Virus record (IMG/VR): IMGVR_UViG_3300030372_005019
Location: 1-24,910 of that record
Source: a virus
Lineage: Duplodnaviria; Caudoviricetes
DNA length: 24,910 nt
Reading direction: 5' to 3' (one strand)
Position numbers and translations under genes: made by a program. The notes beneath the pieces are model-generated. The model worked only from the letters and a program-made list of their open reading frames with translations. It searched no databases and was not told the DNA's origin. Below, one piece after another: positions 5,675 to 24,548 of this stretch; the stretch's first letter is position 1; every line of letters begins with the position of its first letter.

Positions 5675-6079
5675 ATGAAAGACATGCACTCGAATATCAA
5701 GGTGCTGCCCGCCATCACGCCGGCTGCGGTTGGAACCAGCGGCATCGCCGGTGGCAAGCTTTCGGCGATCATCGACCGCCGAGGCTACGAGTCCGCCGAG
5801 TTTGTGTATTCCTACGGCACATCGGCAACGGTGGCCGATACGATCACGCCGGTGGTCTATGAGGCGAATGCGACCGGCGACACGTTCACATCGGTTGCGG
5901 ATGCGGACCTGATCGGTTCCGAAGCCGCCATCGCGCTGACGGCGGCCGGTTCCAGCAAGATCGGTTATCGCGGCAACAAGCGCTATCTGCGGCTGCGGCT
6001 CTACGGCACCGGCCATGCGACCGGCACCGTGTCGGCTGAGGCTCTCCTCGGAAACCCAGCGATCGCGCCGGTGACCTGA
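5675..6079 (+). CDS. Putative capsid decoration/cement protein (134 aa)
   Basis: ATG 5675 with GAGG RBS; small Ala/Thr/Gly-rich beta-type protein (IDRRGYES, KIGYRGNKRYLRL) directly after the capsid gene. Confidence 0.65.
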   Translation: MKDMHSNIKVLPAITPAAVGTSGIAGGKLSAIIDRRGYESAEFVYSYGTSATVADTITPVVYEANATGDTFTSVADADLIGSEAAIALTAAGSSKIGYRGNKRYLRLRLYGTGHATGTVSAEALLGNPAIAPVT

Positions 6080-6867
6080 TGCCGGCCAAACGAAAGAGCC
6101 GCGCGCGGGCAACCCCCGCGCGCGGTCCCGACCATGTCGCCATTCTGGGTCTTGGCGAGTCGCTTGGAACCTTCATGGAGGTTGCCAAGCGGCTGGGTGG
6201 CCGCAGCGCCTATTGCGACGAGGTGTGGAGCATCAATGCGGCAGGCGACGTGTTTGCCTGCGACCGGATTTTCCACATGGATGATCTTGCGGTGCAGGAA
6301 GCCAGAGCAGCTGCGCGGCCTGATGGAAACATCGCGGCAATGGTCAAATGGCTGAAGACGCACCCGGGTCCGATCTACACATCCAGGTTGCGCAAAGGTT
6401 ATCCGGGGCTCGTGGAGTTCCCGCTCGAGGAAGTGCTCAATGCCGGTCATGACGGCAATGGCGGCGCTCCCTATTTCAATTCGACAGCGGCCTATGCAAT
6501 AGCCTATGCAATCCACATTGGCGCCAGCCGTATCTCCCTGTTCGGTCTCGATTACACGCTTCAGAACTCACACAGTGCCGAACGCGGTCGGGCATGCTGT
6601 GAATTCTGGCTTGGAATTGCCGCGGCCCGTGGCATCGAGATCACCATTCCCGAAACGAGTTCACTCATGGACGCCTGCGCGCCGGAGGATGAGCTGCTTT
6701 ACGGATATGACTGTGTCGATGTGTCTCTGTCGACACGCGATGACGGCAGTCTTGCGGTCGCCTTTGCCGAGCGTGCGCCACCGACCGCCGAAGACATCGA
6801 GGCGCGTTACAACCATTCCAGACATCCGAACCGGCTCATAGCCGGAGATGTGAAGCAAGGGAGATGA
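6079..6867 (+). CDS. Putative CstII/Maf-like (sialyltransferase-fold) glycosyltransferase
   Basis: VAILGLGES, EVWSIN, STAAYAIAYAIHIGASRISLFGLDY motifs; TGATG coupling to the upstream gene. Confidence 0.6.
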   Translation: MPAKRKSRARATPARGPDHVAILGLGESLGTFMEVAKRLGGRSAYCDEVWSINAAGDVFACDRIFHMDDLAVQEARAAARPDGNIAAMVKWLKTHPGPIYTSRLRKGYPGLVEFPLEEVLNAGHDGNGGAPYFNSTAAYAIAYAIHIGASRISLFGLDYTLQNSHSAERGRACCEFWLGIAAARGIEITIPETSSLMDACAPEDELLYGYDCVDVSLSTRDDGSLAVAFAERAPPTAEDIEARYNHSRHPNRLIAGDVKQGR

Positions 6868-22225: not shown

Positions 22226-23041
22226 ATGGACCGCAATTTTCAACGTGCACTTCCGCTCGTTCTCAAGCACGAAGGCGGTTGGGCCGACAACCCGAAGGAT
22301 CCCGGCGGCGCCACCATGAAGGGGGTCACGATTGCGACCTTCCGGCGTTATGTGAAGGCTGACGCGACGAAGGCTGATCTGCGCGCGATCTCTGATGAGC
22401 AGATCGCCACGGTTTATTACCGGCACTACTGGTCGGTCGTGAATGCGCCGGCGCTGCCGTCCGGTCTTGACTACGCGGTGTTCGACTATGCGGTCAACAG
22501 CGGGCCGAGCCGATCGGCAAAGTACCTCCAGCGAATAGTGGGGGTGAAGCAGGACGGGCGCATAGGCCCAGAAACGCTCAAGGCAGTCAGACGGCACGAC
22601 ACAGCCGAACTGATCAACCGCCTCTGTGATGATCGCCTGGCCTTTCTCAAGCGCGCCAAGGACAGGCAGGGGCGACTGCTGTGGCCAACTTTCGGCGATG
22701 GATGGACAAGCCGCGTTGGCGATGTCCGGCGCACTGCCATCAAGATGGTCGGTGACCCGGCGGATGTGGAGACCGTTAACGTGCCGGTTCCGGTTCCAAA
22801 GCCGGTCGTGCCGCAATCGGTCGATGAGGCAGTCAAGAAGACATCGAAGCAGGGGGGCTGGCTGTCCATTATCAGTGGCGCCGCCGGCACAGCTCTCTCT
22901 GCGGTGCTTGGGGCTGATTGGCAAACAATCGCGGTGATCGGCGGTGTGGGGCTCGGTGTCGCGGTGCTGGCGCTGGTGGCCGGACCGTTGATCGTGTCCC
23001 GGATCAAGGCCATACGCCGGGCTGTGGAGGCAGCCGCGTGA
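22226..23041 (+). CDS. Endolysin, glycoside hydrolase family 108 with PG-binding region and hydrophobic C-tail
   Basis: HEGG..NPKDPGGAT..GVT, VFDYAVNSG, DGRIGPETL, FGDGW..RV; ATG 22226 after AGGAAG. Confidence 0.92.
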   Translation: MDRNFQRALPLVLKHEGGWADNPKDPGGATMKGVTIATFRRYVKADATKADLRAISDEQIATVYYRHYWSVVNAPALPSGLDYAVFDYAVNSGPSRSAKYLQRIVGVKQDGRIGPETLKAVRRHDTAELINRLCDDRLAFLKRAKDRQGRLLWPTFGDGWTSRVGDVRRTAIKMVGDPADVETVNVPVPVPKPVVPQSVDEAVKKTSKQGGWLSIISGAAGTALSAVLGADWQTIAVIGGVGLGVAVLALVAGPLIVSRIKAIRRAVEAAA

Positions 23042-23277
23042 TGTGGTGGCCTGTCGCAAAGTGGGTGGCCGTCGGCGCCGCAGTGATCTTCATCGTACAG
23101 ATGCTCCGCGATGACGGCGCGCAGTCGCTCAAGAACAAGATGGAAAGGCAGGACAATGAAGCAGCTCACAACGCCGACACGGCTCGCCTTGATTACGATG
23201 GCTGCTCTGATGCTGGCCTCGTGTGGGACTTCGGGGCCGGCAAGTGTCGCGGGCCTTCGGAACGTGGTCGGGACTGA
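23041..23277 (+). CDS. Inner-membrane spanin (Rz-like)
   Basis: N-terminal TM (WVAVGAAVIFIVQML), helical periplasmic part, two Cys; TGATG coupling to the endolysin. Confidence 0.7.
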   Translation: MWWPVAKWVAVGAAVIFIVQMLRDDGAQSLKNKMERQDNEAAHNADTARLDYDGCSDAGLVWDFGAGKCRGPSERGRD

Positions 23278-23410
23278 CCTGAAGGGCGCCAAAGGTCTCA
23301 CCCCGAACGATCAGCGCAAGATCGACCGGACAGTGGTTGGGATCTGCGCGGCGTTGATCTGGACCCGGGCCGAATGCGCTGAGCACGGACGTCAGAGCCG
23401 CGCACAGTAA
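23156..23410 (+). CDS. Outer-membrane spanin lipoprotein (Rz1-like), overlapping the i-spanin
   Basis: Signal peptide with lipobox LAS-C; AGGA RBS; starts inside the i-spanin in a different frame. Confidence 0.75.
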   Translation: MKQLTTPTRLALITMAALMLASCGTSGPASVAGLRNVVGTDLKGAKGLTPNDQRKIDRTVVGICAALIWTRAECAEHGRQSRAQ

Positions 23411-23482
23411 GCGGGCCGAGCGGAGATGCGACCTTCCGCACGGCCCTGACCACACCAGCCTACAAGGGGGCCGATATGGCTA
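23410..23482 (-). ncRNA. Candidate cis-antisense RNA with SymR-like two-hairpin architecture
   Basis: The 23449-23480 hairpin pairs fully only on the minus strand (four A-C mismatches become G-U); second stem 23413-23446; covers the RBS/ATG of the leader ORF. Confidence 0.5.
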
Positions 23483-23538
23483 CAGAGACCACTACCCGAT
23501 CATCGGTAAAGCAACCGTTACTGAAGGCATCCCGATGA
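23476..23538 (+). CDS. 20-aa leader peptide coupled to the holin-like gene
   Basis: AAGGGGG RBS at 23464-23470; MATETTTRSSVKQPLLKASR*; stop overlaps ATG 23535 (ATGA). Confidence 0.5.
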   Translation: MATETTTRSSVKQPLLKASR

Positions 23539-23876
23539 CGTTGGCGGAAATGATCAACAGCGACAACGCGCTGGTCTGGGCGGCCGGGTTGGCCGGGGCC
23601 GCGGCTATGGCTGCTACAGACTGGCGTTCGCCATGGCGCCTTGCTCAGCACGTCTTTGTCGGCACAACGGCGGCGATCATTGCCACGCCTTTGCTGTTCC
23701 CGATGATCAGTGGCTTGCTGGGCTTCCTCAATGTCGATGAAGGTGCGCACCAAAACTCAGCGGCATTCATGACCGGCGCATTTGCGATCTACCTGTTCGA
23801 GTACATCCTGGCATTCTGGAACTCGAAAATGATGCAGAGCACCCCAAAGGAGGATGGAGACGGTCATGAGCAATAA
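23535..23876 (+). CDS. Holin-like membrane protein
   Basis: Two to three hydrophobic segments, charged C-terminus, located in the lysis module. Confidence 0.65.
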   Translation: MTLAEMINSDNALVWAAGLAGAAAMAATDWRSPWRLAQHVFVGTTAAIIATPLLFPMISGLLGFLNVDEGAHQNSAAFMTGAFAIYLFEYILAFWNSKMMQSTPKEDGDGHEQ

Positions 23877-24375
23877 AGCGGCCGCCACAGCTGCGGCGAT
23901 GGAAACCTCCGGTGCCGGGCTGAGGTTCATTGCATTGTCGATCGGCGCAATGGTGTTTTTCTCGGTGCTGACCGATTTCAGGCAGTGGCGGGAATCCACC
24001 TCACGGATCTACGCTGAACCGACCAATGTCATCTGGTCCCTTCGCCCTGATGCATTGGTGGTGTCGGGCGTTTCAGAGAAAAAGGAAGACTGCTCGGTCG
24101 TTCATGGCAGCCAGGTGTTCCTTCTGGCCATGGCTGAGTACAACGGTGAGCTTGAGCCGCTGGCGTATCCCGCATTGAAACTCTCAGGAGCAGAGATCGA
24201 AGGCCGGCCGCTGCTCCAGAGTGGTGACCGGTTCGTGGTTGGACCCTGGGTGATCAACGACAGCCGCGAATTGCTCGAGCGCATCAATGAGGTGCGCGTT
24301 ATCCTCCAGTGTGAATTTGCATCCGGGGTTCGCCGGTCGACATACATCGGCCCGCTCTTGAAACCGGGCGCATAG
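23866..24375 (+). CDS. Membrane-anchored hypothetical protein (N-terminal TM, likely periplasmic domain)
   Basis: GGAG at 23856-23859 before ATG 23866; TM FIALSIGAMVFFSVL; two Cys. Confidence 0.7.
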   Translation: MSNKAAATAAAMETSGAGLRFIALSIGAMVFFSVLTDFRQWRESTSRIYAEPTNVIWSLRPDALVVSGVSEKKEDCSVVHGSQVFLLAMAEYNGELEPLAYPALKLSGAEIEGRPLLQSGDRFVVGPWVINDSRELLERINEVRVILQCEFASGVRRSTYIGPLLKPGA

Positions 24376-24480
24376 CCAATTCGCCGCATGCCGCGGCGTT
24401 TGCCCGCCGGTGCTGACCGGTCTGTTCAAAGTGCCTCGAACTCGTCAGGTTGGCTGCAATCTACCTGAAGCGTTCCATTG

Positions 24481-24519
24481 AAAAGAGCCCCGCTGCCCGA
24501 AAGGGTGGCGGGGCTTTTT
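24481..24519. terminator. Rho-independent terminator closing the late operon, possibly bidirectional
   Basis: AAAAGA-GCCCCGCTGCCC-GAAA-GGGTGGCGGGGC-TTTTT. Confidence 0.85.
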
Positions 24520-24548
24520 CGCGTTTTCGGATCGTGGTATCGGGCGAC

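Follow-up and report, generated by a model that had tools for sequence, protein, structure and literature searches.

A predicted cis-antisense RNA of about 74 nt covers the ribosome-binding site (RBS) and start codon of a 20-codon leader in the lysis module of the phage record IMGVR_UViG_3300030372_005019, and the stop of this leader overlaps the start of a predicted holin gene. The reading we favour, at a probability of about 0.6, is that an antisense RNA from a promoter within the leader blocks the leader RBS on the late transcript, the holin being held down through translational coupling. The observation behind this reading came from a first-pass annotation and is confirmed here; the interpretation attached to it is partly to largely supported.

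The lysis module and its candidate antisense element

The window (the whole stretch of DNA analysed) is the entire virus record, 24,910 bases, linear and about 50% complete, and it carries a head-tail-lysis operon. The nearest named relatives of its endolysin come from Nitratireductor, Aquamicrobium, Mesorhizobium and kin, which points to a member of the Rhizobiales as the phage host. The lysis end opens with a GH108 endolysin, followed by two overlapping spanin-like genes; after a gap of 124 nt come the three-TM gene (113 aa) and a membrane-anchored gene (169 aa):

22226..23041, plus strand: endolysin with GH108 and PG_binding_3 domains and a hydrophobic C-terminus (Pfam PF05838, E 1.7e-26, and PF09374; phrog_315 endolysin; scanned from 22244)
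23041..23277, plus strand: predicted i-spanin-like gene with an N-terminal hydrophobic segment (sequence; phrog_23603, function unknown)
23156..23410, plus strand: predicted o-spanin-like lipoprotein with a lipobox, overlapping the i-spanin-like gene (sequence; phrog_19660)
23408..23481, minus strand: predicted ~74-nt cis-antisense RNA of two stem-loops (fold; own model R1 60.3 bits, this copy being in the training set; RF00043 30.4 bits on the plus strand)
23413..23446, minus strand: stem-loop II, the 3' hairpin, with a short tail that is not a U-run (fold)
23449..23480, minus strand: stem-loop I, 12 bp including four G-U pairs (fold; anti-SD from the stem top into the loop)
23464..23470, plus strand: leader Shine-Dalgarno (SD) sequence, AAGGGGG (sequence; duplex -10.3 kcal/mol)
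23476..23538, plus strand: leader ORF, 20 codons, its stop overlapping the holin-like start (ATGA) (sequence; homologous leaders of 21 codons in L001 and 32 codons in L146)
23489..23494, minus strand: predicted antisense-promoter -10 hexamer TAGTGG, without the final T (family register)
23506..23514, plus strand: 9-mer shared without change by four related leaders, rare codons included (alignment)
23535..23876, plus strand: predicted holin, 113 aa, three hydrophobic segments (phrog_13918, E 1.4e-12; phrog_2359 'holin', E 9.6e-5; 3 TM)
23866..24375, plus strand: membrane-anchored gene with an N-terminal anchor, overlapping the holin end (no family match)

The gap separates the o-spanin-like stop at 23410 from the holin-like ATG at 23535. 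All earlier coordinates for the gap, the AAGGGGG site, the ORF and the ATGA overlap were verified. A spanin role for 23041..23277 is suggested by its position and overlap; phrog_19660, the family of the o-spanin-like protein, is also found upstream of the cassette in locus L075. The three-TM gene can be weakly assigned as a holin. Its homologue in L146 matches phrog_2359 at E 5.7e-8; searches with the window protein gave no Pfam or relevant NCBIfam match and no SymE family match, and the Phage_holin_3_1 cluster in Atlas, at rank 20 only (score 0.85), is a lead. The 23866-24375 protein could be a partner of the holin. The Atu_ph08 paper puts holin activity on the gene upstream of the three-TM gene (PMC6630229).

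By-eye comparison places genes built like 23866-24375 after the holin in L001, L146 and L148. A strong GC-rich hairpin at 24480-24520, flanked by A and T runs and resembling a two-way terminator, ends the lysis operon. Far upstream, at 6079-6867, a 262-aa gene of non-structural appearance lies between capsid-region and head-tail connector genes.

The element folds best on the minus strand. Positions 23449-23460 and 23469-23480 meet in four A-C mismatches on the plus strand, all of which become G-U pairs on the minus strand; this 12-bp stem and the second stem at 23413-23446 had both been described before, and both are present. The minus strand of 23408-23481 folds at -43.1 kcal/mol (z -5.03; 0 of 200 shuffles as stable), versus -30.6 kcal/mol (z -2.16) for the plus strand of the same 74 nt, and of 994 tiles of this length across the window none folds as stably as the minus-strand element. 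The ends assigned to the RNA follow from the family alignment; its predicted 5' end is complementary to the first two codons of the leader, and the element covers both the leader SD and the start codon. A terminator scan at stem-loop II gave no match. Trans targets among the start codons of the window reach -38 or weaker, versus -70 for the cis duplex.

A promoter for this RNA is predicted in the first codons of the leader. Compared with 117 control gene starts, the extended -10 of the window ranks at the 98th percentile; at canonical spacing a -35 is lacking, the -35 part contributing -3.0 bits and the total standing at the 7th percentile of long-ORF cassettes. A generic promoter scan of the window returned no site at the cassette. 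The 9-mer at 23506-23514 is a candidate DNA element of the antisense promoter; as to codon rarity, GTA accounts for 11 of 283 Val codons and CAA for 37 of 130 Gln codons in seven window genes.

The SD of the holin is weak in the window, as noted earlier (-3.7 versus -10.3 kcal/mol for the leader), yet this weakness may not be fixed, because an A>G change at 23524 in a close-strain contig (one contig, depth 5.3) creates a GGAGG site for the holin. For a close strain, the variant list, 26 rows of which lie outside the view, names no change within the RNA. A hairpin pairing 23500-23506 with 23532-23538 that might hide the holin start was rejected, since none of 12 loci showed it above shuffles; nor does the leader occlude the holin start significantly (14/60 shuffles in the window, 4/60 in the best locus).

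The cassette family and its leader-type copies

Three pattern scans of IMG/VR, one of them selected for ATGA overlaps, gave at least 357 sites, and at least 223 distinct phage-contig copies fold as the same two hairpins. Among the matches listed, 223 copies divide into 174 that head ORFs over 40 codons, 45 that head short ORFs and 4 that are cut off. Scanning of 97 of the 174 long ORFs (matches listed) identified HNH, endonuclease VII or homing endonucleases in 48; Rha, an integrase and a repressor family are found among the rest. A forward promoter precedes the long-ORF copies (p 6e-20 among the matches listed). In the host family, a 72-copy model found matches in 27 of 61 genomes (79 candidates scored per genome); besides the L146 site, most of these precede long genes that are hypothetical or HNH-like, and of the 30 loci of this survey 11 fall outside the start-codon rule used. 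Blastn of the element against plasmids and phages gave short chance matches only.

Several variants of the layout were observed. In L158, L160, L162, L163, L165, L170, L173, L177 and others, the cassette heads common Rhizobiales hypothetical proteins with near-identical N-termini; the conserved residues at their start coincide with the reverse extended -10 promoter. In many Rhizobiales genomes there is a sub-family whose ATG is displaced with respect to the hairpin (L166, L168, L171, L172, L174, L175, L181-L183, L185-L187). HNH genes are also headed via 15- and 17-codon leaders (L041:1232-1280; L211:2038-2091), and the leader-type cassette of L211 directly follows an endolysin and an Rz-like gene. 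Short coupled leaders are also found ahead of a primase gene, of DUF-type genes close to primases, of a replication initiator and of a major head gene (L382, L355, L369, L406, L222); the leader device therefore extends beyond lysis.

The antisense fold is supported by covariation. In an alignment of 11 leader-type copies, 8 of which came from a pattern fixing the five invariant pairs of stem I, the minus-strand consensus reaches -40.3 versus -13.0 kcal/mol for the sense strand, which keeps part of stem II only. Two-sided changes occur at 18 of the 25 pairs (0/500 shuffles; above all slid controls). The antisense fold is more stable than the sense fold in all 25 of 25 leader-type copies, with G-U at 163 of 664 pairs.

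Small membrane proteins follow 25 of 45 short-leader cassettes as predicted-TM products, versus 8 of 174 long ORFs with any TM (matches listed); in two scans without ATGA selection, 20/171 copies were of the short-leader type, 10 of them before small TM proteins (matches listed). A lysin lies upstream in 7/30 short-leader versus 3/107 long-ORF copies (leave-one-out p 0.001; matches listed); an initial figure of 13/30 versus 3/107 was circular owing to self-hits and has been replaced. Genes downstream of leader-type copies come from unrelated families (phrog_13918, DUF1515, phrog_6420 and unclassified), and the leader SD is stronger than the downstream SD in 11/12 loci. The closest copies to the window among the matches listed, L293, L233 and L321, share its cassette and the first part of its leader including the 9-mer; their leaders are then followed by a hydrophobic ORF of 24-25 aa and by a membrane gene other than that of the window. 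This cassette has thus, judging from the alignments, outlived a change of downstream gene. The strongly hydrophobic 24-25-aa ORF between a 14-codon leader and the next membrane gene is seen in L028/L321:2072-2146, L075/L233 and L293:375-452; in L321, L233 and L293 it is overlap-chained, and its size resembles a type I toxin or an antiholin.

Next to the holin itself, both close homologues with DNA (2/2) keep the cassette and an out-of-frame overlapping leader: L001, from a metagenome scan covering 13 of 64 parts, and L146, one of 6 matches in 400 genomes. The order in both is upstream gene stop, two hairpins, SD, and a leader running over the holin start. The extent of the overlap is not fixed, being 4 nt in the window and 14 and 29 nt in the homologues. 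The minus-strand fold of L001 has z -5.8; in L146, the holin SD is better than the leader SD. A contig of run X1 carries another cassette variant behind the same o-spanin end.

Further away, a convincing cassette was found in 0/5 distant holin homologues in genomes, in 0/7 cultured-phage loci at the homologous gene (phi3LM21, RHph_N28_2, RHph_X3_15, Erebus, AmM-1, Atu_ph08, JL001) and, above 25 bits, in 0/24 endolysin relatives; L139 and L129 gave weak R1 matches of 24.7 and 22.5 bits at atypical lengths. The cassette is therefore an optional insert before the predicted-holin gene family and is dispensable across the group. A similar-sized gap in phi3LM21, considered as a cassette, reads by eye as an unannotated o-spanin-like end. 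Close queries for holin homologues confirmed none in viral contigs, genome contigs, cultured phages and plasmids; an order-wide sample gave 0/401 genomes, and a genus sample 1/12, the already known one (G295 was left out of scoring).

The leader peptides are not conserved past the first residues, and a reverse sigma-70-type signal lies in the first codons of the ORF across the cassette family. The reverse promoter score of 31 hand-picked lysis-type leaders exceeds that of 117 other gene starts (p 3e-11); the extended -10 accounts for this, its TG being present in 22/31 versus 17/117. The signal is weaker in leaders than in long-ORF copies (p 1e-8), with the canonical TA in 8/31 versus 149/174 (matches listed for both). 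ATGA-coupled leaders of 12 codons or fewer number 1 among 47 structured cassettes (50/64 parts scanned); those of 14-23 codons number 20 among 62 structured copies listed (39/64 parts), and 11 of these are 14-15 codons long. Because coupled leaders are almost never shorter than 14 codons and the reverse extended -10 is kept, the leader likely houses the antisense promoter. The floor near 14 codons fits a promoter footprint, ribosome spacing being another possible cause. The symR promoter also sits inside symE (PMC1891008).

For the forward direction, a sigma-70-type scan of lysis-type copies found no promoter above background (p 0.90; matches listed); the score is 4.9 in the window, with a median of 4.2 in 24 lysis-type copies, 4.6 in the background and 7.5 in long-ORF copies. 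Lysis-type copies thus likely depend on the late transcript, so that the device would be a translation gate on that transcript and not an autonomous hok/sok module.

Relation to known antisense systems

The closest analogue in layout is SymR/symE of E. coli (RF01809). It shares with the predicted RNA of the window a cis-antisense RNA of similar length and two-hairpin form over the RBS and start codon (PMC1891008, PMC4147584). A promoter within the target ORF would be a further likeness: the family-level signal is clear, and the window's own -10, at the 98th percentile, stands without a canonical -35. By contrast, the target in the window is a 20-codon leader plus a predicted holin, not SymE, and no own forward promoter signal is seen. 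Against Rfam symR (gathering cut-off 61 bits), the window gave no match at E <= 10, its best Rfam score being the 30.4 bits on RF00043, but the homologue L001 reaches 42.6 bits (E 6e-6) over the entire model, still below the cut-off. The earlier description of a SymR-like minus-strand two-hairpin element over the leader RBS, and of a leader-coupled layout, is supported by the covariation, the conserved layout and the score of L001.

RepX targets repA and FinP targets traJ. These RNAs act directly on long genes, whereas the window has a leader relay in a phage lysis operon. The RF00043 match, to RepX/R1162, a 75-nt RNA of IncQ plasmids (E 0.018), spans the full model on the mRNA strand. RepX and the window both have two stem-loops, a short linker (GUUA in RepX, GUCA in the window) and a short 3' tail without a U-run; RepX, FinP and the window are all antisense to the RBS and initiation codon (PMC8136791). 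Differences are a score below the gathering score of 55 and a context in a phage lysis module, not at repA of an IncQ replicon. Since the RF00043 match is to the mRNA strand and the consensus of the model stops at a start codon, Rfam appears to store this family in sense orientation. PtaRNA1 (RF01811; mentioned in PMC3300014) has the same 5' anti-start-codon layout, and the leader-type copy L100 matches it weakly at 26.7 bits; this is below the cut-off of 47, and the window gives no match.

For the relay, the parallels are CopA-tap-repA of plasmid R1 (PMC12361487) and Sok-mok-hok (PMC4147584, PMC5488031), in which an antisense RNA blocks a leader and the gene is translationally coupled to it; the window has the same layout. 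An antisense RNA over a leader ORF that overlaps a membrane-protein gene, as in hok/mok/sok, is what the window is predicted to encode, and the output is a predicted holin where that of hok is a membrane-damaging protein. CopA and Sok, however, belong to RNA families different from that of the window, and mok reaches over nearly the whole of hok, whose mRNA requires 3' processing, whereas the window leader is short, with a 4-nt overlap, within a late operon. The hok/mok/sok-style control first proposed is not supported in the sense of an autonomous module, in view of this small overlap and the lack of a forward promoter in lysis copies, and the co-opted type I antitoxin is better described as a portable start-codon antisense cassette, often on HNH genes. 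IsrK-orf45-anrP of prophage Gifsy-1 likewise combines a prophage small RNA, a leader of variable peptide and an AUGA overlap to the next gene; it differs in that IsrK activates in trans from the same strand and the output is an antiterminator pathway, not lysis (PMC4825925).

Judged by sequence comparison, the window element is SymR/RepX-like in RNA shape and target site and tap/mok-like in its relay, and it is a member of none of these families: scores lie below the cut-offs, targets differ and no autonomous mRNA is predicted. Single cassette copies match the symR, R1162, PtaRNA1 and FinP models weakly, and on this ground we suggest that all of these and the cassette form one superfamily.

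Proposed lysis gating, rival explanations and significance

In the proposed mechanism, the ~74-nt antisense RNA would be made constitutively, likely from the promoter within the 20-codon leader, and would pair with the leader RBS and start codon on the late lysis transcript, blocking translation of the leader. The predicted holin, whose start overlaps the leader stop, would then likely be kept down by coupling of the CopA-tap or Sok-mok kind. The likely purpose is a threshold: the antisense pool would soak up leaky read-through in the lysogen or in early infection, and strong late transcription would out-titrate it; a delay of lysis may follow as a secondary effect. Of the two roles first suggested, silencing of leaky holin expression is better grounded than timing, because SymR is reported to alter the level and not the timing of SymE (PMC1891008). 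As to origin, a portable cassette that often heads HNH endonuclease genes was likely domesticated more than once, its ORF being trimmed to a leader just long enough to retain the antisense promoter. Several observations speak against the coupling model: the weak promoter of the window, overlaps of 4, 14 and 29 nt, the holin's own SD in L146 and in the strain variant, and the absence of significant occlusion.

The main rival, which we hold to be unlikely, is that an HNH (or other) gene with its antisense cassette was inserted between spanin and holin and then deleted, the leader being a leftover and the RNA being silent or without bearing on lysis. HNH cassettes downstream of lysins (L211, L230, L250, L256) suggest a route of origin for the domesticated device and feed this relic explanation as well, as do the endonucleases among the long ORFs scanned (48/97; matches listed), the patchy presence of the cassette, the degraded promoters of leaders relative to long-ORF copies (p 1e-8; matches listed) and the fact that the nearest neighbours of the L001 and L146 cassettes among the matches listed are long-ORF copies. 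Decay alone, however, fits poorly with the undiminished hairpin stability of leader-type copies (medians -17.4/-26.2 versus -14.7/-25.3 in long-ORF copies; all passed the fold filter; matches listed), with the loss of the forward promoter signal while the reverse signal is retained, or with the length floor near 14 codons. One cassette lineage also persists before different membrane genes (window, L293, L233, L321), and the nearest neighbour is of the lysis type for 14 of 28 lysis-type copies, versus 12% expected (matches listed).

A functional antisense RNA might also act without leader coupling, through a duplex leading to RNase III cleavage or polarity, with the leader only carrying the promoter and the holin using its own SD. 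We give this somewhat less credence than the relic. The variable overlaps and the own SD in L146 and the strain variant fit it, as does L008, whose 4-codon leader stops 51 nt short of the next start; yet in 40 of 45 cases the leader stop lies -14..+8 nt from the next start (matches listed; starts chosen by hand; one of three scans ATGA-selected), and SymR acts on translation independently of RNase III (PMC4147584). Least probable by our assessment is a plus-strand hairpin acting only in cis after the o-spanin stop (processing, stabilising, attenuating or masking the SD), with no antisense RNA at all. Stem II does form on the plus strand too (-30.6 kcal/mol overall, z -2.2), and 10 of 11 sense pairs covary; stem I, however, forms well on the minus strand only, the G-U bias is consistent, no U-run stands behind the sense hairpin, and a reverse promoter signal is found in the cassette family.

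A wider and more tentative proposal, to which we give slightly under even odds, is that a single superfamily of portable start-codon antisense cassettes, spread largely through HNH endonuclease genes, unites SymR, RepX and PtaRNA1 with hundreds of phage elements not yet catalogued. Phages, chiefly of Alphaproteobacteria, would have repeatedly domesticated it into a minimal antisense-gated bicistronic leader (14-30 codons, with its own antisense promoter) setting a translation threshold for holins and other lysis membrane proteins. A literature search, in which few subscription journals were covered, found no description of such a cassette before holins. Known holin controls are mainly dual starts, antiholins and late transcription. 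Holin output decides when the infected cell or lysogen dies; if the proposal is true, lysis would be controlled at the RNA level by a route other than dual-start motifs and antiholins, and holin regulation would gain a further layer in the form of a recurrent cis-antisense gate whose leader is disposable. Such a gate would also account for the 100-130-nt gaps left without annotation in many lysis modules, connect several Rfam families now separate, and be a clear case of a selfish element's self-silencing device taken over by a phage.
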